From Acetofilamentum sp. (lineage in GTDB: Bacteria > Bacteroidota > Bacteroidia > Bacteroidales > JAFGXI01): a stretch of DNA of 64,000 bases. Both the position numbers and the translations under genes were made by a program. The stretch covers positions 7,334 to 71,333 of the forward strand of contig DYOK01000001.1 of the NCBI GenBank assembly GCA_020720565.1, written 5' to 3'. Positions 2,621 through 38,589 of this stretch are shown here, one piece after another; within the stretch, counting starts at the first letter, position 1; each line of letters opens with the position of its first letter. The notes beneath the pieces are model-generated. The model was not told where the DNA came from. It was given only the letters and a program-made list of their open reading frames with translations, and searched no databases.

Positions 2621-3763
2621 TTAATATTGCAAAGCTTTCAAACTCACAATATACACGTTTTGATAGTAGAATTTGATAATATCTTTGTACGAAAAGCCCT
2701 TTTTGTCCATTTGCATGGCGCCTTCTTGCGATAGTCCGACACCATGACCATAACCCCTCCCATTTAATACAATTTGGCCGTCGGCATAGCTGATGGTAAA
2801 CAAAGTCGATTTTAACTTAAATTGGTTTCGCAGTGCAGTGTATGCTATCGAATCAGAACCAAACACATAGTATTTTTTACGTCTTAAACTCGAATCATTA
2901 AAATCTGAACCATTGATATTGGGTGAAATTTTAAAGCCGTTTTGCTTTAAATAACTGACCCACGAACTCAAAGGAACCGATTTGGTCCAAAGGTAGCTAT
3001 TACCGCCAATGCTGTATGGGTCTTCGACCGATCGCAAGTACGAACGCGACTGTTGCCAAACATGCTCCGAAGCTGCGGTATATCCCCCACTATTTGAATA
3101 AAAAGAGGCTGTAATTAAACTTAACGAAGAATCGACTATCACCAAGCCTTTGGTCATGCTAGTGGCTTCGACAATTAAATCGCTAAATTTGGCTCTGCCT
3201 TTAAAAGCTTGACAATGTACGTCGTCGCACAGATTAAAACCATCGGCTTCGTGCTTGTGGTAATTCTCAAGTGCATAGGTTCGGCATAAGATGGCTTGTG
3301 TTTTATAGTATTCTTTACCTGCTTTTGAACCGCCCTCGCTCTCGACAACTGCTGCGACATAATGCTCCAAATCTAATTGGTTGATGATTCGAATTTTGCC
3401 AGCAATAACTTCTAAATAAAAATCGTCTTGATATTCACGTGGTTTAAGTTGAGGGTTATCGGCTTTTAGTCTGATTGTATTAAAAGAACCTTTTCCTAAT
3501 AGTTCAATCTTTTGATAGCTGCCCAAATCTTTTGTGTCTTCTTTAATTTGGATTTTATCACCAATTTGGTTTAGATAAATTATTTCGTTTGGGTTAATGG
3601 TTTTTACCAATTGGCTATCGCCCCATAACTGATATTGACCAAAAACTGTTGAAATTAGTACTGTTTTAAGCGCATGTTGATGGAATAGCCCAATTCTAAT
3701 ATCTTGAGCAAATGATACATATGAAAATATCAGAAATAATAATATGATAATGATTCGTTTCAA
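2621..3763 (-). CDS. SpoIID/LytB domain protein (secreted peptidoglycan-remodelling family)
   Basis: N-terminal signal peptide. SpoIID-type motifs YHKHEADGFNLCDDVHCQAFKG and GRGYGHGVGLSQEGA. The start codon is TTG. Confidence 0.85.
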   Translation of the reverse strand: MKRIIIILLFLIFSYVSFAQDIRIGLFHQHALKTVLISTVFGQYQLWGDSQLVKTINPNEIIYLNQIGDKIQIKEDTKDLGSYQKIELLGKGSFNTIRLKADNPQLKPREYQDDFYLEVIAGKIRIINQLDLEHYVAAVVESEGGSKAGKEYYKTQAILCRTYALENYHKHEADGFNLCDDVHCQAFKGRAKFSDLIVEATSMTKGLVIVDSSLSLITASFYSNSGGYTAASEHVWQQSRSYLRSVEDPYSIGGNSYLWTKSVPLSSWVSYLKQNGFKISPNINGSDFNDSSLRRKKYYVFGSDSIAYTALRNQFKLKSTLFTISYADGQIVLNGRGYGHGVGLSQEGAMQMDKKGFSYKDIIKFYYQNVYIVSLKALQY

Positions 3764-3969
3764 TTTTATAAAATATATAGATTTTTAAACAAAAAATTTA
3801 AATGTACCTGAGTTGTCGAATTCTTCAAAAATAACTTATCGGGAGTTCTGAAAATTGCTTTTTCATCGTTGGACTTCAATTTTAAAATCCTCATTTACAA
3901 TAGTAAACTCCGGTTTTAAATTCTTGTCCGCCTCAAAAAATCTAATTTTTAGAACCCATCTTATGTAAA

Positions 3970-5028
3970 TTAGCAGTTATCATCATTTGCTTTTTGAATA
4001 TTATTCAGATTCAATTCATTATTCACTAATCGATCAAAATCACTTTCAAATAATCTGTCCTGTATAATTCTGTATTTCTCAAACTCTGTTTCCGCATGCA
4101 CTTTTGCAATTTCTGCAGACACTTTTCCTGCATCTTGTAATATATTTCTATCAGTGGCTTCAATAAATCTATTCAAACGTGTCTCCCAGTCTTCCATTGT
4201 CATCGGAATTCCCCTAAGTGCCATATCCTCAGCAATATCAATGTAGGCAGAAACCAATCGTTGTAATTGTTGCATCTCATTTTCGTTCAAATAGTTTTTT
4301 GCTACACTTACATCAAATTTTTGAATTTTTCCATTTGGTGCATCTTTCCAAATACTTAATCCCATATTCTGCTTTTGGTGGTCGGCTCTATTAATTATTA
4401 CTTCCGCTGCTGTTTGACCGTGTATTGCCCAATGTAACTTATTTTGAACTGTTGCAAAAAAACGTTTAGTTGCTTGAGCTGTAAAATCATAATCAATAGC
4501 TGTGGTATAAATATCGGTTATTTTTTGATAAAATTTGCGTTCGCTTAACCGTATTTCTCTAATACGTTGCAGTTGTTCTTCAAAGTATTTTTTGCCTAAA
4601 ATAGAGCCATCGTTTTTAAGTCGCTCATCGTCCATTGCAAAACCCTTGATCGTAAACTCTTGCACAATTTGAGTTGCCCACTTTCGGAACATTACCGCTC
4701 GCTCACTGTTAACTTTGTAGCCTATTGCAATTATTGCCGATAAATTATAGTGCTTTGTTTTGTAGCTTTTAGCATCATTGGCAGTTATTCGAAAATTTCG
4801 AATAACTGAACTTTCACTTAGCTCACTATCCAAAAATATTTTTTTTAAATGATAATTAATGGTATGAGTTTCTACATTGTATAACTCCCCCATCATTTTT
4901 TGAGTTAACCAAATATTTTCATCTGCATAAATTGCATCTATTCCACCATCACCTGTCGAAGCAATAAAAGTTAAATATTCGGCAGATGAAGATCGAATTA
5001 CTGCTTTATTTTTATTTTTTTCTGCCAT
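3970..5028 (-). CDS. RhuM-family (virulence-associated, Fic/DOC-related) protein
   Basis: The N-terminal block ENIWLTQKMMGELYNV...INYHLKKIF...VIRNFRITA...KHYNLSAIIAIGYKVNSERAVMFRKWATQ...IKGFAMDDERLKN matches the RhuM family pattern. Confidence 0.85.
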   Translation of the reverse strand: MAEKNKNKAVIRSSSAEYLTFIASTGDGGIDAIYADENIWLTQKMMGELYNVETHTINYHLKKIFLDSELSESSVIRNFRITANDAKSYKTKHYNLSAIIAIGYKVNSERAVMFRKWATQIVQEFTIKGFAMDDERLKNDGSILGKKYFEEQLQRIREIRLSERKFYQKITDIYTTAIDYDFTAQATKRFFATVQNKLHWAIHGQTAAEVIINRADHQKQNMGLSIWKDAPNGKIQKFDVSVAKNYLNENEMQQLQRLVSAYIDIAEDMALRGIPMTMEDWETRLNRFIEATDRNILQDAGKVSAEIAKVHAETEFEKYRIIQDRLFESDFDRLVNNELNLNNIQKANDDNC

Positions 5029-8296: not shown

Positions 8297-10780
8297 CTAT
8301 ATTTCTTTTGATAAGAATTTATTCATTTTATAAAACAAAATGTCTTTTTTGATGGGCTTTGTGATAAAATCATCACAGCCAGCCTCAATTGCACGTCTTT
8401 TTTCGTCGGACATGGCATAAGCCGTTTGGGCAATAATTGGTAATTTTGAATATCTCGATTTAATTTCTTCTGCGGCAGTGTATCCGTCCATTTCTGGCAT
8501 TTTTAAATCGAGTAGTATCAAATTCGGAATCTCTTTTTGCACGGCTTTTATCAACTCTTTTCCATTTTTTAACCATACCAAACGCACTTCGGTTTTTTTA
8601 AGATAGGCTTCGATCAGTAAATAATTCGATTGCTCATCTTCTGCAACATAGACCAATTGGTCTTTCCATTTGCATTCTAATTGTTGATGGGGTTTAATAA
8701 ATGATTTGGTATCGCCAATTTCTTTAACAATTAAACTTGGCAAACTAACAATAAATTCGGTGCCGACACTTCGATGCGAGTTAACCAGTATATCACCACC
8801 CAATAAATTACTTAGATGTTTGCTAATGGCTAAACCCAAACCAGCACCACGAAATGGGCGTGTCGAGCTTTCGTCGACTTGTCTAAAGCGGTCGAAAATA
8901 ATATCCTGTTTCTCTTTGGGGATTCCTATTCCAGAATCTTTAACGTGAAAAATTATTTTGTTATCGAGTAACTCGTACCAAACCTCAATCGAGCCATTGG
9001 GTGTGAATTTTATCGAATTGTTAATTAAGTTATTTAGAATTTGTTTCAATCGGCTCCTATCCGATTTAATATTGACAGGTAATTTGCTGTATGCAAATCG
9101 CATCTGAACGTTGGTTTGTTCGTTTAGGATGTTGTAATATTCTATTTCGAGCTCTTCGAATACTTCGTTTATATTAAATACCTCTTGCCTAATTTCCAGT
9201 TGGTTCGATTCAATTTTCGAAATATCGATAATATCATCGATTAGTTTAATTAAAACATCGCCCGAGTTTTGAATCAGTGAAGAATATTTTGTTCTTAGTT
9301 CTTGATCTAAATCTTCGTTGAGCACCAAATTTGAAAAACCGATTATCGCATTCATAGGTGTCCTAATTTCGTGCGACATATTCGATAAAAAAGCTGATTT
9401 TAGCCGATCGGATTCAATCGCATTTTCTTTGGCTTGTATCAACTCTTTTTCGTACGAGATTCGTTCCAAGATAATGGCGGCTTGAGCAATAAAAATTTCG
9501 ACAAACTCGTTTTCGACTAGAAAATTCTCGTTAGGTGTTAAGATTGCAATTCCACCTAATATTTTGTTTTCGACAATTAGTTTTCCTGTATAAATTTTTT
9601 TAACACCAAGAAACGTTTTTAACAAAACCATTTTAGCTTTAGAAATGGTTTTAAAAAAACTACTAGTCGTCAATAAATCTTCAATATCAACAAAAAAATG
9701 ATTGCTAGGTATTTGGTAATCAATTACATCAATCTCTAACTTACTGATATCAAATTTTAAAAACTCTGACAATTGAGCCATTTTTGAACCCTCAATATGA
9801 TTGATTTTTACCCTGTGTGTCTCTGGTATATAATCGCCAATAATGATAACAGATTTAGGATTAAAGGCATAAAGGGTTCTGGCAATATACTTATATAGTG
9901 AGTTTTTGTCTTTATATTGGTTGAGTTGAAATACCGACAACGCTAGTAATTCTTTCTGTTTTCGATTTTCTGTATCGATTTTATATCGTTTGATGGACTC
10001 TGTTTTGTCTTGAAAAATACATTGAAAGTAGCTATCGCCTTGCTTTATAAATTTTGTAACCGAGATAGAAACATTACGTTCTTCTGAGTTTCGAACAAAT
10101 AAAATTGTGTTAAAACTTTTATCGTTGTTATCGCTTGAAGCGTTAAGAAGATAAGTTTTAAAGGCAGGGCCATCTTCACCAATAAAATCAGAAATTCTCT
10201 TGGAAATAAGGTCTGATTGCTTCAAATTGAACAGCTCTTCAGCTTTTGTATTTCCTTGATGAATTACGCCTTCTTCAGTATGGAGAATTAAAGTTGTTAA
10301 AGGTGATAATTGGAAAAGGAGGCTATACCGCTCTTCAAGTTCGTGTTGTTTTGATACATCGAACAAAATTCCCCTTATGGCATAAGGAAGATCATTACGA
10401 TAAACAATACTGGTACTTGAAATGACAGGCACTCTATTGCCATCTTTCGACTTTGCCCAATAGGTTTGCCGTTCGTATGGTTCGTTTCGGAGTATTCGGT
10501 CAATATTAACTAAGATTTTTGGGTAATCTTCGGGGAAGATATCTTGTAGACTAAAGTCTTCGGTAAACTCTTTATATGAATAACCATATTTAGCCAAGCC
10601 ATTAGCATTGATATAATTAACTTTACCGTCTAAATTGAGTTCAAAAACTAATTCAGGTATTAAATCGAGCATTTCTTTGTGCCGAGAAATATCGACGAGA
10701 TTTAAAGCACTTTTTAATCGCGCATTCTCCGCCTCGTATAATGCTAACTTGTTTAATAAATCTTGGTTAGTTTGGCTCAT
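8297..10780 (-). CDS. Hybrid sensor histidine kinase/response regulator with PAS and GAF-like domains
   Basis: HisKA H-box [18 protein letters not shown]. HATPase boxes ([27 protein letters not shown]). C-terminal receiver (VAEDE...[12 protein letters not shown]...KP). Confidence 0.9.
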
Positions 10781-10788
10781 AATTTAAG

Positions 10789-11736
10789 CTATGAGAAAAG
10801 CGAATCTACAAACTCTTTTCGGTTAAATATTTGCAAATCTTCCATTTTTTCACCAATTCCGATATATTTTACTGGTATTTTAAATTGATCGGAAATCCCT
10901 ATTACCACGCCGCCTTTTGCAGTGCCATCGAGTTTAGTTAGTGCTAAAGCTGTAACTTCTGTGGCAAGTGTAAATTGCTTAGCTTGCTCGAATGCATTTT
11001 GACCAGTTGAACCATCTAAGACCAATAATACTTCTTGAGGGGCATCTGGAATCAATTTTTTCATCACATTTTTAATTTTGGTGAGCTCATTCATCAAATT
11101 GATTTTATTATGCAAACGCCCAGCAGTGTCAATTATCACCACATCGGCTTTATTGGCTATGGCCGATTTTAAAGTATCGTATGCAACCGAGGCGGGATCG
11201 GAACCCATATTTTGCTTCACAATAGGCACCCCTACCCGTTGCGACCAAATAACCAATTGGTCGACTGCAGCAGCCCTAAAAGTATCTGCAGCACCTAAAT
11301 AAACCGATTTTCCCGATGTTTTAAATTGGTGAGCTAATTTACCAATAGTAGTGGTCTTGCCTACTCCATTTACGCCTACCACCATAATCACGTAGGGATA
11401 ACCCTTACCGTCAAAATCGATATTATGATTATGCGAATGGTTTTCTTCAAGCAAATTCGAAATCTCTTCTCTAAGGATGGCGTTAAGTTCCGATGCATTT
11501 AAAAACTTATCTTTTGCAACTCGCTTTTCGATTCGTTCAATTATTTTTAGCGTGGTCGAAACACCGACATCAGAACTTATCAGAATTTCTTCTAAATTAT
11601 CGAGTAATTCGTCGTCAATTTTTGATTTACCAATAATTGCTCTAGATATCTTTCCAAATACCGATTCTTTTGTTTTGGCTAAACCTTGGTCTAAACTTTG
11701 TTTTTTTTCTTTTGAGAAGAAATCGAAAATGCCCAT
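10789..11736 (-). CDS. ftsY: Signal recognition particle receptor FtsY
   Basis: SRP GTPase motifs GVNGVGKTTTIGKLA, DTAGRL and TKLDGTAKGG. Length is typical of a short FtsY. Confidence 0.93.
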   Translation of the reverse strand: MGIFDFFSKEKKQSLDQGLAKTKESVFGKISRAIIGKSKIDDELLDNLEEILISSDVGVSTTLKIIERIEKRVAKDKFLNASELNAILREEISNLLEENHSHNHNIDFDGKGYPYVIMVVGVNGVGKTTTIGKLAHQFKTSGKSVYLGAADTFRAAAVDQLVIWSQRVGVPIVKQNMGSDPASVAYDTLKSAIANKADVVIIDTAGRLHNKINLMNELTKIKNVMKKLIPDAPQEVLLVLDGSTGQNAFEQAKQFTLATEVTALALTKLDGTAKGGVVIGISDQFKIPVKYIGIGEKMEDLQIFNRKEFVDSLFS

Positions 11737-33314: not shown

Positions 33315-34016
33315 ATGAAACACAAAGATATAAACTGCGATAATTGTTTTATAAGCAAGTCTTCTGTATTTACAGTTCTAACAGACGAAGAAAAAAATAT
33401 TATTCGTCAGAATCACTCTTGTACACATTATAAAAAAGGGGAAATCATATACAAAGAAGGCGACAAGCCGACAGGACTTATCTGCTTGTCTGATGGCAAA
33501 GTCAAAATATATAAAGAAGGTGTGGGAGGACGTGAACAGATTGTTAGAATGGCTAAACCAGTTGGTTTTATTGGGTATAGAGCATTATTTGCAAACGAGA
33601 ATTACATCGCTTCTGCTTTAGCTATCGAGGATTCAACAGTTTGTAATATCGACAAAAAAATTCTTTTCGAAATGATTCATCGAAATACCGAATTTGCATC
33701 CAATATTATTAAATCTTTGGCCACCGAATTAGGATTCTCTAATAACAGAACCGTAACATTAACCCAGAAACACATTAGAGGTCGTTTGGCCGAGTCTCTT
33801 TTGTTCTTGATGGATACCTATGGTTTCGAAGAAGATGGCAAAACTATTCGGGTGTATTTGTCTCGCGAAGACATCGCGAACTTATCAAACATGACCACAT
33901 CAAACGCCATTCGCACGCTCTCTACTTTTGCTAGTGAAAATATTATTAGCCTCGATGGTCGAAAAATTAGTATCCTCGATGTACGTGCACTTGGAAAAGT
34001 AAGCGAGATGGGTTAA
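33315..34016 (+). CDS. Crp/Fnr family transcriptional regulator
   Basis: cNMP-binding beta-roll followed by a C-terminal HTH (REDIANLSNMTTSNAIRTLS). The N-terminus contains CDNC. Confidence 0.88.
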   Translation: MKHKDINCDNCFISKSSVFTVLTDEEKNIIRQNHSCTHYKKGEIIYKEGDKPTGLICLSDGKVKIYKEGVGGREQIVRMAKPVGFIGYRALFANENYIASALAIEDSTVCNIDKKILFEMIHRNTEFASNIIKSLATELGFSNNRTVTLTQKHIRGRLAESLLFLMDTYGFEEDGKTIRVYLSREDIANLSNMTTSNAIRTLSTFASENIISLDGRKISILDVRALGKVSEMG

Positions 34017-34730: not shown

Positions 34731-35801
34731 ATGAAATCAATATTTTTATTTCTCTCATTTTTTCTAATGCAATTTTCGTATAGCCAATCCAAGGCTATTA
34801 TCACATTTGCAAAAACTGAACATGATTTTGGTACTATTCTCGAAGTAAATGGTCCACAAACCTATGAGTTTAAACTTAAAAATACAGGAACAGCACCATT
34901 GGTTATCAATAATATTGAAGCCTCGTGTGGTTGCACTACCCCAGAATGGAGCAAAGCCCCCATTGCAGCTGGTAAAGAAGGTTATGTAAAAGTCAGTTTC
35001 GACCCAAAAGACAGACCGGGTTCTTTTAGTAAAACCATTACTGTAAGTTCGAATGCCACCGTTCCAGAAACAATTCTTACCATTAAAGGTATAGTAAAAG
35101 AACGAGCAAAAACCATAGACGACGAGTATCAATATACGCTTAATGGTCTAAAAATGACCAGTTCGCATGTAGCCATGACAAGAGTCTATAGCAATTCTTC
35201 AAAAAAAGATGTTTTAGACTTATACAATTCTACAGACAAACCTATTGTGGTTCAGTTCGACCAAATCCCATCTCATCTCACCATTAGTCCTGCCAAATTA
35301 ACTGTAGCCCCAAAGCAAAAAGCAGTTGTTAATTTCACTTTTGATGCCACCAAGAAAAAAGATTTTGGATTTGTGTCGGACCGAGTTATGGTGATTATCG
35401 ACAATAAAAGGGATTCAAAAAACAAAATTACGGTGAGTGCCGATATTCAAGAAGACTTTTCGAAACTTACTAAAGCTCAACTGGATGCGACACCAAAAGC
35501 TGGATTTAATAGCACAATTCACGACTTAGGCCTTATTAATTCTGGTGAGAAAAAAACATTCTCTTTTACACTTACTAATAATGGAAAAACCGATTTAATC
35601 GTACGTAAAATATCGTCAAATTGCGGCTGTACAGTGGCTAAATTACAATCCATGACCATTAAACCTGGACAATCTACCAAAATTGATGTGAATTTTGATG
35701 CAAAAGGCTTAACAGGTAAGCAAAACAAAACAATTACCGTTATTACGAACGACCCTCAAAATTCCACTACAATTCTTAGAATTAAAGGAGATATAAAATA
35801 A
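34731..35801 (+). CDS. Secreted DUF1573 domain protein (two DUF1573 modules)
   Basis: Signal peptide. Two modules carry the FxFxNTG..PLxI....SCGCT..xW pattern (ASCGCTTPEW and SNCGCTVAK). Confidence 0.8.
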   Translation: MKSIFLFLSFFLMQFSYSQSKAIITFAKTEHDFGTILEVNGPQTYEFKLKNTGTAPLVINNIEASCGCTTPEWSKAPIAAGKEGYVKVSFDPKDRPGSFSKTITVSSNATVPETILTIKGIVKERAKTIDDEYQYTLNGLKMTSSHVAMTRVYSNSSKKDVLDLYNSTDKPIVVQFDQIPSHLTISPAKLTVAPKQKAVVNFTFDATKKKDFGFVSDRVMVIIDNKRDSKNKITVSADIQEDFSKLTKAQLDATPKAGFNSTIHDLGLINSGEKKTFSFTLTNNGKTDLIVRKISSNCGCTVAKLQSMTIKPGQSTKIDVNFDAKGLTGKQNKTITVITNDPQNSTTILRIKGDIK

Positions 35802-35945
35802 ACGTTGACGCTATGAATTTATCTTGAAAATAGATTTTTTGAATAATTTTAAAAATAGATCTATCAACCAAGGTGATAAAATAAGTTCACCATCCAATTT
35901 TAACATTTATTAAAACTGTTTTATAACACAAGACAGTTTTTTTTT

Positions 35946-35953
35946 TACTTTTG
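35946..35953 (+). promoter_or_regulatory. Candidate -7 box (TACTTTTG) upstream of the trx-like gene
   Basis: Exact TAnnTTTG match ~35 nt upstream of the ATG at 35988. Confidence 0.4.
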
Positions 35954-35987: not shown

Positions 35988-36332
35988 ATGTTAATGACAA
36001 ATTTAGAGCACGTATTAACCGCTGCTCAACATAAAGAAGTAATCGAAAACAACGAAAACGTAATGATTTGCTGTGGCAGAATGGGACCAATGTGTATTCC
36101 TGTTTACATTGCAATGGACGAATTAAAAGCAGAATATCCAAACATCAAATTTTTGGATATGGAATTTGATTCACCAGATGCTCACGTCATTAGAAATGCA
36201 CCAGAATGCTCACGTTTTATGGGATTACCATTTACAATGTATTACAAAAATGGAAAAGTAGCCAAAGCGACCACCAGCATTCAAAACAAAGAGCAAATTA
36301 AAGCCATTTTGGATCAATATTTAGCTTCGTAA
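35988..36332 (+). CDS. Thioredoxin-fold protein with non-canonical active-site region
   Basis: Size and secondary pattern match thioredoxin (cis-Pro region GLPFTMYYKNGK). CCGRMGPMC replaces WCGPC. It lies directly upstream of a TrxR-like gene. Confidence 0.65.
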   Translation: MLMTNLEHVLTAAQHKEVIENNENVMICCGRMGPMCIPVYIAMDELKAEYPNIKFLDMEFDSPDAHVIRNAPECSRFMGLPFTMYYKNGKVAKATTSIQNKEQIKAILDQYLAS

Positions 36333-36379: not shown

Positions 36380-37306
36380 ATGAACACTAATCATTTTGAT
36401 GTCATTGTTTTAGGTGGTGGAGCCGCAGGATTGACAGCTGGCATATACTTATCCCGAGCTAAAGTCAGCACATTGATTTTAAATGAAGGTATGGTAGGTG
36501 GGCAGATGGTTCTGACATACGAAATAGCTAATTACCCTGGTATAGAACAAACTTCGGGTTATATGCTTTCGCTTACCATGAAAAAACAAGCTGAAACTTT
36601 CGGTTGTGTGGTTAAACAGAATGTGATTATTAAGGACGTCAATCTCGAAGGATCAGTTAAAAAAGTTGTACTTAGCAATAACGAAGAATATACAGCAAAA
36701 GCTGTTATTATTGCGTCTGGAGGTAGTTCAAGAAATTTGGGCATTGAAAGCGAAGACACTTTTAAAGGCAGAGGAATTTCATACTGCGCGACTTGCGATG
36801 GCGACTTTTATACAGGCCGTGATATTATTGTAGTTGGTGGCGGAAATTCGGCTCTAGAAGAAGCTGTTTCCTTGACTAAGTACGCCAAAACAGTTACAAT
36901 AGTGCATCAATTCGACCATTTTCAAGCTTTTGAACACGCTGTAGAGGCCGCAAAACAAAATCCAAAAATAAATTTTGTAATGGAATCAACCATAAGTGGG
37001 TTCTATGGACAAGACCAATTGGATTTTGTAAAGATTAAAAATCTAAAAACCAACGAAACAACTGACAGAACAATTGACGGCGTTTTTATTTTTATTGGTT
37101 ATATGGCTAATTCCACAAAATTTCAAAATAAAGTACATTTGAATCAACGTGGCGAAATCCCAACTGACGAAAAAATGGCGACCAATATCCCTGGCGTATT
37201 TGCAGCAGGAGATGTCAGAGAGAAACAAATACGTCAGATTGTAACTGCCACTTCTGACGGCGCAATTGCAGCAATAAGTGCAATAGAATACATTCAAAAT
37301 CAATAG
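36380..37306 (+). CDS. Thioredoxin-disulfide reductase family flavoprotein (atypical pyridine-nucleotide site)
   Basis: FAD motif VLGGGAAGLTAG, redox-active CATCDG, GGGNSALEEA and GVFAAGDV. HQFDHFQ sits where NTRs have HRRxxxR. Confidence 0.85.
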   Translation: MNTNHFDVIVLGGGAAGLTAGIYLSRAKVSTLILNEGMVGGQMVLTYEIANYPGIEQTSGYMLSLTMKKQAETFGCVVKQNVIIKDVNLEGSVKKVVLSNNEEYTAKAVIIASGGSSRNLGIESEDTFKGRGISYCATCDGDFYTGRDIIVVGGGNSALEEAVSLTKYAKTVTIVHQFDHFQAFEHAVEAAKQNPKINFVMESTISGFYGQDQLDFVKIKNLKTNETTDRTIDGVFIFIGYMANSTKFQNKVHLNQRGEIPTDEKMATNIPGVFAAGDVREKQIRQIVTATSDGAIAAISAIEYIQNQ

Positions 37307-37449: not shown

Positions 37450-38589
37450 ATGCTCATGAATTTTTTCGAAAAACTTTGTTTTCTATATTTTATGATAATT
37501 GACCATTTAGAAAATTCTCATTCGTTTCCTAACCTTAGCGTAAATAAAGGTAAAGATGTAAGTTCTACCAATCCACAATCGGTTAATGATTTTCGAGCCA
37601 AGCGTCAAAAACAAAACGATGCCATATCTTATTTTAATGCCATAAGACTAGGCCATATTCCTAGCCTAAGCAAAGCCATTACACTGATTGAAAGCACCCG
37701 TCCTGAGCATCAAAAACTGGCTTCCGAAATTGTTAACCTCTGTCTACCCTACTCCGGAAATGCCATGCGTATTGGAATAACTGGTGTACCCGGTGTAGGA
37801 AAAAGTACATTTATCGAAACTTTTGGTTTAAGTTTGGTTCAGCAGGGGAAAAAGATTGCGATTCTGGCAATAGACCCAAGCAGCGAAAAGTCGAAAGGTA
37901 GTATTTTAGGCGATAAAACCAGAATGGAGGAGCTTGTAAAATCTCCATTTGCATTTATTAGACCGTCGCCTTCGTCTGGAACTTTGGGTGGTGTAGCTCG
38001 AAAAACAAGAGAAAGTATTATTCTTTGCGAAGCAGCAGGTTTTAACATGGTATTAATCGAAACCGTTGGAGTTGGACAATCAGAAATCGCTGTCCATTCG
38101 ATGACAGACTTTTTTCTCCTGTTGATGCTGGCTGGTGCTGGTGACGAACTTCAAGGTATCAAAAGAGGAATTATGGAAATGGCCGATGGTATTGCCATTA
38201 CTAAAGCTGATGGTGACAATTTATTGAAAGCTCAAGCTGCTGTATCCGAATTTTCAAACGCATTACATCTTTTTCCGCCAACTAGTTCTGGTTGGATTCC
38301 AAAAGTCTTAGCCTGTTCTTCAACAGAAAATACTGGTATACAAGAGCTTGGCAGTAATATTGAACTGTTTTTTACAAGGCAAACCGAAAATGGACATCTC
38401 CAAATAAAGCGTATCTCACAATCAAAATATTGGATGCACGAAAACATTAAAGCTTTGATTTTAGATGATCTTTACCGTGATCCGAAAATATCGGAACAAC
38501 TAATCACAATCGAAGAGCAACTAATTAATCAAAAAATTGATCCTTTTAAAGCCTCTGAAATAATCTTTGAAATGTATCGTTCTAAATAA
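37450..38589 (+). CDS. meaB: Methylmalonyl-CoA mutase-associated GTPase MeaB (ArgK/LAO-AO type G3E GTPase)
   Basis: LSKAITLIES, P-loop GVPGVGKSTFIE, ETVGVGQSE and ITKADGD. The start may be 37492. The stop TAA lies in a repeat head. Confidence 0.88.
   Translation: MLMNFFEKLCFLYFMIIDHLENSHSFPNLSVNKGKDVSSTNPQSVNDFRAKRQKQNDAISYFNAIRLGHIPSLSKAITLIESTRPEHQKLASEIVNLCLPYSGNAMRIGITGVPGVGKSTFIETFGLSLVQQGKKIAILAIDPSSEKSKGSILGDKTRMEELVKSPFAFIRPSPSSGTLGGVARKTRESIILCEAAGFNMVLIETVGVGQSEIAVHSMTDFFLLLMLAGAGDELQGIKRGIMEMADGIAITKADGDNLLKAQAAVSEFSNALHLFPPTSSGWIPKVLACSSTENTGIQELGSNIELFFTRQTENGHLQIKRISQSKYWMHENIKALILDDLYRDPKISEQLITIEEQLINQKIDPFKASEIIFEMYRSK

Follow-up and report, generated by a model that had tools for sequence, protein, structure and literature searches.

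A Bacteroidota subfamily of thioredoxin reductases with a fixed replacement of the 2'-phosphate motif and a C-x6-C thioredoxin-fold partner

Thioredoxin reductases (TrxRs) that draw electrons from donors other than NADPH are a known theme, and the T. maritima TrxR with its glutaredoxin (Grx)-like protein and C. pasteurianum Cp34/Cp9 are systems that prefer NADH. The T. acidophilum TrxR is also NADH-dependent and lacks the HRRxxxR motif (PMC6262447), the arginines of which make salt bridges to the phosphate (PMC5627308). The pyrophosphate (PP) motif GGGxxAxE is kept in NADPH-type TR1 and in NADH-type TR3 but is degenerate in the NAD(P)H-independent TRi; in DvTRi it reads GEGxxAxN, and TQ/NGK replaces HRRD (PMC5627308). 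FFTRs lack both GxGxxA and HRRxxxR (PMC10880999), and Valette et al. described atypical TrxRs as confined to Clostridia and Deltaproteobacteria (PMC5627308). Here we describe a TrxR-family gene in a stretch of 64,000 nucleotides from Acetofilamentum sp. of the Bacteroidota (assembly GCA_020720565.1, contig DYOK01000001.1, positions 7,334 to 71,333; hereafter the window), the product of which reads HQFDHFQ at the site of HRRxxxR and the gene of which directly follows that of a small thioredoxin-fold protein.

The replaced 2'-phosphate motif and its subfamily

By structural-family criteria, the predicted reductase is an intact low-Mr TrxR. It matched Pfam Pyr_redox_2 (1.4e-50), its best PDB match in phmmer was the NADPH-type TrxR (NTR) 7aaw (2.5e-75), and it shared 40-43% identity with NADPH-type NTRs. 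The AlphaFold2 (AF2) model (pLDDT 83.6) had the NTR fold and was closest to NTRs in the flavin-reducing conformation, with template modelling (TM) scores of 0.81-0.83 to 5MH4, 5U63, and 1F6M. Canonical NTRs such as E. coli TrxB, B. cereus 7AAW, and D. radiodurans 2Q7V have the same length, fold, and two-domain architecture, and share with the reductase the FAD GxGxxG motif, GRG, CATC in the nucleotide domain, and the GxGxxA and GD motifs, all of which were invariant in the family. The retention of GGGAAG, CATCDG, and GGGNSALEEA noted in the original prediction was confirmed (Table 1). Also invariant was the thioredoxin-docking signature, here GRG and CATCDGDF, corresponding to the GR/KG and Phe after CxxC that constitute the thioredoxin-binding signature of Valette et al. 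(PMC5627308). In PDB alignments the C-terminus was a normal NTR end. The reductase differs from the NADPH-dependent TrxB class in that the 2'-phosphate motif is missing, though GGGxxAxE is present as GGGNSALEEA, and in that its score against TIGR01292 (thioredoxin-disulfide reductase, NCBIfam) was 338.4 bits, 5 under the curated cutoff of 343.45; the fused family member of locus L021 reached 348.7 bits.

At the site where NTRs read VxxxHRRDx[F/L]R, the reductase reads VTIVHQFDHFQ, with three of three arginines replaced. In phmmer comparisons with the solved NTRs 7aaw, 2q7v, 4gcm, 5uwy, and 5mh4, the region aligned without gaps, VTIVHQFDHFQA over VTIVHRRDTLRA, and since the columns flanking HQFDHFQ were near-identical to those of the solved NTRs, an alignment error is excluded. 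The replacement had been read originally from the DNA alone, with the reservation that a misalignment might hide equivalent basic residues in an adjoining stretch; the replacement stood and the reservation fell away, as no conserved Lys or Arg was gained anywhere in the family compared with 53 canonical NTRs. Thousands of relatives were found among the 5.8 billion proteins searched, and the pattern H[QIME]FD[HY]FQ[AG][FYL] was found in all of the best 120, in which the motif was read (63-100% identity). In a 27-sequence alignment, V151-V163 (including GGGNSALEEA), H176, F178, D179, F181, and Q182 were invariant. Comparison of 23 clade sequences with the 53 canonical NTRs gave only seven clade-specific positions, namely E50A, A115G, R178F, R182Q, I208F, Y259E, and A295T. 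The position of R177 is occupied by Q, I, M, or E across the family (HEFDEFQ in L012), and position 180 is mostly His or Tyr, with Glu, Asn, and Gln also tolerated.

Because H176, F178, D179, F181, and Q182 were invariant and all 120 best homologues shared the motif, we take the replacement motif to be under selection, the product of neither chance nor decay. A duplicate in decay, or a pseudogene whose cofactor site is inactivated, might have been suspected from the loss of the canonical motif and an NCBIfam score just below the equivalog cutoff. However, the open reading frame (ORF) is intact, the catalytic motifs are invariant, the replacement motif persists in hundreds of sequences from several phyla, and gene order is likewise conserved; decay is effectively refuted by these conservation data, and the chance of it is negligible.

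It is improbable that the reductase is still an NADPH or dual NADH/NADPH enzyme, in which the motif would be neutral and the 2'-phosphate would be held by His176, His180, Gln177, Gln182, or the backbone. His176 is kept, His or Tyr at position 180 is common, and both the overall identity to NADPH enzymes and the database label "thioredoxin reductase (NADPH)", though such names are automatic, would agree with this explanation. Nevertheless, all three phosphate-bridging arginines are gone with no basic residue gained, position 177 tolerates Glu, Ile, and Met, position 180 tolerates Glu, Asn, and Gln, and a neutral variant would not become one precise motif across a whole clade. Furthermore, Glu at position 177 would repel a 2'-phosphate and is therefore hard to square with binding of that group. 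As the 2'-phosphate arginine cluster is gone, the donor is probably not NADPH.

In a scan of one genome per species, the HQFD-type motif was conserved in 22 genomes. Of these, 19 were Bacteroidota genomes, including those of Proteiniphilum acetatigenes DSM 18083 (L002, reductase at 9998-10957), Maribellus sp. YY47, a Lentimicrobium metagenome-assembled genome (MAG), and a 'Chlorobi' MAG, and three were MAGs outside the Bacteroidota, assigned to Myxococcales (L020), Spirochaetes (L021), and Leptospirales (L037). Among the remaining 58 loci of the scan, 52 had the full HRRxxxR and six (L027, L033, L041, L074, L078, and L080) had other variants. In a neighbour-joining tree (301 columns, 200 bootstraps, AhpF outgroup), the Bacteroidota HQFD-type clade was supported by 200/200 bootstraps, and by 193/200 with L020, L021, and L037 added, and it was nested among canonical HRR-type NTRs. 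This single supported clade within HRR-type reductases indicates that the motif change arose once and was then kept. The phylogenetic placement called for in the original prediction thus went against a kinship with FFTR or DTR, as the clade fell among canonical NTRs. As far as sequences define it, the family is a conserved Bacteroidota subfamily of TrxRs with a fixed replacement motif, its hosts being mostly anaerobic Bacteroidota.

Several of the other variants were also altered at this site. A Cloacimonadales TrxR variant without HRRxxxR (L041, 157-1365) has GNGNTA and HDEGTMD together with a C-terminal thioredoxin-like domain, a 304-aa variant (L027, 10010-10924) has an AhpF-like VEFMEDLNA site, and VNILETLQA in Mycoplasmatota, IQNLGYLTA in Vagococcus, and VYRRENVRC in Gemella were found among L080 (960-1922), L074 (9989-10948), and L033. 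The 2'-phosphate site of TrxRs has been remodelled repeatedly and in differing ways.

The thioredoxin-fold partner and linked genes

The gene directly upstream of the reductase encodes a protein of classic thioredoxin fold, with an AF2 model of pLDDT 91.6 and TM scores of 0.75-0.83 to thioredoxins. A profile matched PDB thioredoxins at E=6e-6, and the score against Pfam Thioredoxin (PF00085) was 14.5 bits, under the cutoff of 23.5. The partner has neither WCGPC nor any CxxC; its active-site loop, C28-C29-G-R-M-G-P-M-C36, is rich in Cys and Met, and G30, R31, G33, P34, M35, C36, P38, V39, and Y40 are invariant in the partner family. The adjacent thioredoxin-like protein had been put forward as an acceptor of the reductase; such a gene does exist there, but its product carries C-x6-C in place of CxxC. 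In all 20 Bacteroidota loci, the partner gene immediately precedes that of the reductase. Only 201 members of the partner family were found at E<=1e-3 among 1.84 billion representative proteins, so that the family is sharply separate from ordinary thioredoxins. In remote members C29 is constant and position 36 is Cys or Ser, and this C-x6-C/S pattern mirrors the CxxC/CxxS logic with an enlarged loop. The C-x6-C protein is a candidate substrate, adaptor, or sensor. BLASTP gave only weak C-terminal similarity (E=0.016) between the partner and the fused thioredoxin domain of L021, and a derivation of the partner from that domain is not claimed.

In a Clostridia MAG (L044), a 44%-identical partner homologue with CAGRRGPMC (2697-3044) lies directly upstream of a canonical HRRDSLR reductase (3056-3985), and the partner family is thus not exclusively tied to the HQFD-type enzyme.

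The partner and reductase genes form a predicted two-gene operon with the reductase second. The gap between them is 47 nt, with no terminator-like site on the + strand within it. A candidate Bacteroidetes-type -7 box lies before the partner gene and a terminator-like hairpin after the reductase (Table 1), and equivalent candidate boxes were found at -34..-48 in L001, L002, L003, L010, and L017. A sigma-70 promoter scan gave no more sites than shuffled sequences, as expected for Bacteroidota. Upstream of the partner gene, locus-specific palindromes were found, e.g. TTGAG-N4-CTCAA in L010, though no palindrome was common to 20 upstream regions and a shared operator was thus not found there. In the window, a perfect inverted repeat, GGTGA-N10-TCACC (35872-35891, +), lies between a DUF1573 gene and the candidate -7 box; it may represent an operator or the remains of a terminator.

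Ordinary thioredoxins recur beside the reductase in its relatives. A thioredoxin of about 139 aa, which has a single hydrophobic helix at its N-terminus, basic residues after it, and a WC[AGM]PC site, is encoded directly after the reductase in seven loci (L002 10959-11375, L004 5465-5881, L006 4290-4709, L007 10965-11384, L008 1972-2391, L010 10952-11371, and L017 10936-11355) and nearby in two more, and is probably membrane-tethered and cytoplasm-facing. In L021 (4751-6031) and L037 (9605-10981), an N-terminal CxxC thioredoxin (CPPC and CSPC, respectively) is fused to the HQFD-type reductase, giving proteins of 426 and 458 aa. Plant and cyanobacterial NTRC and M. leprae TrxB-TrxA are likewise thioredoxin-TrxR fusions, but the L021 and L037 proteins differ from these in the N-terminal position of the thioredoxin and in the HQFD-type reductase, and the window protein is unfused. 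That the reductase truly acts on thioredoxins is best supported by these fusions and by the membrane thioredoxin.

A Crp/Fnr-family regulator encoded upstream in the window (Table 1) has homologues adjacent to the pair, so that nine family loci carry it, the window included, and it also occurs in four of five loci of remote partner-family members; such regulator genes lie at L002 8721-9416, L006 2044-2739, L010 8780-9475, L090 1098-1793, and L092 1963-2658. By this association, Crp/Fnr control of the partner-reductase pair is possible. The window copy has an N-terminal C-x2-C (CDNC), and 231-aa orthologues have a conserved F-x-CDI-x-APCFQ (C-x5-C) N-terminus; the cysteines of the orthologues suggest a redox- or Fe-S-sensing regulator. 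Remote partner members without a reductase lie beside a divergent Crp/Fnr regulator, followed by a membrane-anchored WCxPC thioredoxin of about 138 aa.

Other neighbours vary. The L021 and L037 fusions adjoin genes for an ArsM-like methyltransferase (NF008823, 194-221 bits, below cutoff) and a radical-SAM/SPASM enzyme, and L021 also adjoins a gene for a DUF5714/MbdU-like metal-binding protein. OsmC and DUF302 are encoded near the reductase in some loci, as is ahpC-ahpF in Proteiniphilum. Remote partner loci are often near further thioredoxins, rhodanese, DUF1847, an ArsM-like methyltransferase, or a coenzyme A-disulfide reductase (CoADR)-rhodanese fusion; rhodanese, a 666-aa CoADR/rhodanese fusion, DUF1847, and DUF6132 were recorded in L092 (3630-5630), L090 (4216-4602), and L089 (1152-1541). 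The genes recorded in these three loci hint at a link to persulfide or sulfur stress. From the variable neighbours and the Cys- and Met-rich partner loop, it might be argued that thioredoxin reduction is not the main task of the enzyme. The pair would then serve to reduce a small molecule or a metal(loid) or persulfide substrate via the C-x6-C partner, perhaps in arsenic methylation or sulfur stress, or the enzyme would be an NADH oxidase or peroxide-reducing system like Cp34/Cp9. However, the only constant partners are thioredoxin-fold proteins, the neighbours in question are absent from the window, and the thioredoxin-docking residues and thioredoxin fusions point to protein disulfide reduction, which makes this a rather unlikely explanation.

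Known reductase classes and the electron donor

FFTR, DvTRi, DTR, and DDOR share with the reductase the TrxR fold and the loss of the arginine cluster. The pyridine-nucleotide-independent TrxRs also lack GxGxxA, which the reductase keeps, and are far more distant in sequence: against the PDB, phmmer gave 3e-51 for DTR 5J60, 5.5e-31 for DvTRi 5NII, 3.5e-27 for FFTR 6GNA, and 4e-16 for DDOR 5N0J, compared with the value given above for the canonical NTR. A relation to the FFTR and DTR/DDOR types, named in the original prediction as known examples of such motif loss, was not borne out by these values.

The named subclasses were considered in turn as identities for the reductase. FFTR was rejected on the presence of GxGxxA, the E-values, and the tree position among NTRs, and the DvTRi type was rejected because HQFD and an intact GGGNSALEE stand where DvTRi has TQ/NGK and GEGxxAxN. 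In D. vulgaris TR3, CxQ takes the place of GR/KG, His is found in VSY, and Pro occupies the thioredoxin-Phe position (PMC5627308); in the reductase GRG, ISY, and DF are canonical, and the partner is a CGRMGPMC protein instead of a CxxC Trx3, so that the DvTR3 type was rejected as well. DTR and DDOR were rejected on their E-values and on the lack of a flavin-covering C-terminal extension. AhpF and AhpF homologues (TIGR03140/TIGR03143) have an NADH-using TrxR-type core like that of the reductase, but they have xEFxxxxKA sites with Glu at the β2 end (VFEFLEELKA in the AhpF of L002; VEFMEDLNA in L027) where the reductase has His-Gln-Phe, and they have CxHC and extra thioredoxin-fold domains where the reductase has CATC and no such domains; TIGR03143 matched only in its N-terminal half, the TrxR core (342.6 bits against a cutoff of 687.65), and this identity was also rejected. 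As the reductase fails a defining feature of every named subclass, NADPH-dependent TrxB included, it represents a distinct TrxR subfamily.

The NADH-preferring TrxRs (TR3/Trx3, T. acidophilum, T. maritima, and Cp34/Cp9) resemble it more closely, in that they have an altered 2'-phosphate motif with the PP motif kept, a reductase gene paired with a dedicated atypical thioredoxin- or Grx-like gene, and anaerobic or microaerophilic hosts. HQFDHFQ, the Bacteroidota distribution, and the C-x6-C partner have been described for none of them, and the full-text literature searched contained no account of a TrxR of the HQFDHFQ type or of an NADH-type TrxR from Bacteroidota. Nor did that literature mention the conserved partner and regulator context of the subfamily.

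The arginine cluster is missing from FFTR, TRi, and DTR as well, and its loss could mean that the enzyme is independent of pyridine nucleotides, with ferredoxin, flavodoxin, or another protein reducing the FAD and the former NADPH domain only carrying CATC. The hosts are mostly anaerobes rich in low-potential carriers, e.g. Proteiniphilum and Lentimicrobium, and the third gene downstream in L010 is a ferredoxin-type NapH-like gene. However, GGGNSALEEA, the counterpart of which is degenerate or absent in TRi and FFTR, is invariant, FFTR and DvTRi are far more distant than NTR, a C-terminal extension is lacking, and no ferredoxin or flavodoxin gene is consistently linked among the family loci. 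We consider this alternative unlikely.

Considering these results, we propose, with moderate confidence, that the reductase is an NADH-linked, 2'-phosphate-independent TrxR in a dedicated thiol-redox module. Given the invariant PP motif, the selected, uncharged replacement at the 2'-phosphate site, and the tolerance of Glu there, NADH would be the most economical donor, and the earlier suggestion that the retained GGGNSA might still bind NADH agrees with published comparisons, where TR3 retains the PP motif and TRi has a degenerate form of it (PMC5627308). The enzyme would be a homodimeric low-Mr TrxR working like E. coli TrxB, passing electrons from the donor to FAD, then to the CATC dithiol, and on to thioredoxin, with rotation of the nucleotide domain during electron transfer. 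The adenosine 2'-phosphate pocket would have been rebuilt from HRRxxxR to HQFDHFQ with the GGGNSALEEA pyrophosphate-binding helix untouched, so that NADH, a dinucleotide without the 2'-phosphate, would be bound and oxidised rather than NADPH. In relatives, electrons would also pass to the membrane-tethered or fused canonical CxxC thioredoxin. Together these parts may make up a thiol-reducing module with its own regulation, probably through Crp/Fnr, the carriers of which are mostly anaerobic Bacteroidota.

Several points weigh against this proposal. No biochemical characterisation of any HQFD-type member was found in the literature searched. The β2 end has no acidic residue, with His176 where AhpF- and lipoamide-dehydrogenase-type NADH enzymes carry Glu, and the site thus does not have the appearance of a textbook NADH site. 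Phe178, Phe181, and Phe208, which are conserved and lie in or close to the site, might just as well form a pocket for some other ligand. The nucleophilic Cys of CxxC is missing from the partner protein, which makes its role as a substrate uncertain. In the window, the membrane thioredoxin gene is absent and a gene for a MeaB GTPase follows the reductase instead.

A broader interpretation, offered tentatively, is that the reductase, the C-x6-C protein, and the membrane-tethered thioredoxin form an undescribed Crp/Fnr-controlled thiol-redox module of anaerobic Bacteroidota, with a donor other than NADPH (NADH or a ligand fitting the Phe-lined pocket). Within it, the C-x6-C protein would not be an ordinary substrate but a partner of a new class, with a redox function or one in handling metal(loid)s or persulfides. 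Such a class is suggested by the recurrent linkage to ArsM-like methyltransferases, rhodanese, the CoADR-rhodanese fusion, DUF1847, and OsmC.

According to the B. fragilis work as cited in PMC5627308, Bacteroides-type anaerobes lack glutathione and have TrxR as their only thiol-disulfide hub. If the proposal of an NADH-linked enzyme is true, a second widespread reductase on a different electron pool would change models of redox homeostasis and of oxygen and metal(loid) tolerance for gut, sediment, and digester Bacteroidota, and thousands of automatic "thioredoxin reductase (NADPH)" annotations would be corrected. Motif-based surveys place every TrxB without HRRxxxR in a class of "non-NTR, probably FFTR", and this class is heterogeneous because the HQFD-type family falls within it. 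Efforts to engineer the cofactor specificity of TrxR-fold enzymes may furthermore take HQFDHFQ as a natural template, and the C-x6-C thioredoxin-fold partner offers a compact, tractable subject.

Feature coordinates and flanking genes

Table 1. Features of the partner-reductase locus, in positions of the window
Feature	Position	Strand	Basis
Crp/Fnr-family regulator, 233 aa; possible regulator of the pair	33315..34016	+	Pfam cNMP_binding and HTH_Crp_2
Candidate Bacteroidetes-type -7 box TACTTTTG (TAnnTTTG), 35-42 nt before partner ATG	35946..35953	+	Consensus match only
Thioredoxin-fold partner, 114 aa; CCGRMGPMC (residues 28-36, nt 36069-36095) instead of CxxC	35988..36332	+	AF2 and profile
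Low-Mr TrxR-family flavoprotein, HQFDHFQ subfamily, 308 aa	36380..37306	+	ORF, ATG start
FAD pyrophosphate motif GGGAAG, residues 12-17	36413..36430	+	G12, G14, A16, G17 invariant in family
Thioredoxin-docking GRG (130-132) and redox-active CATC (136-139)	36767..36796	+	G130, G132, C136-C139 invariant
CATC, residues 136-139	36785..36796	+	Motif position in translated ORF
Second dinucleotide (pyrophosphate) motif GGGNSALEEA, residues 153-162	36836..36865	+	Family-invariant
HQFDHFQ, residues 176-182, at the site of 2'-phosphate motif HRRxxxR	36905..36925	+	Gapless alignment with solved NTRs
Terminator-like hairpin, 10-bp stem, and T-run, 27 nt past reductase stop codon	37333..37368	+

No second TrxR homologue was found in the 64-kb window, which thus offers no further copy to back the term paralog of the original prediction. 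No Rfam match at gathering thresholds was obtained anywhere in positions 1-64000. The GC content is 29-39% throughout, without a compositional island at the reductase locus. The gene directly downstream of the reductase (37450-38589, +) encodes a MeaB/ArgK-type G-protein chaperone (NF006958, 455.7 bits), with no methylmalonyl-CoA mutase gene within 10 kb. The DUF1573 gene upstream (34731-35801, +) encodes a secreted 356-aa protein of HYDIN/VesB-type Ig repeats, with a CGCT motif per repeat and a score of 117.7 bits (cutoff 100) against the NCBIfam OS_HP2 (seleno)protein subfamily domain.

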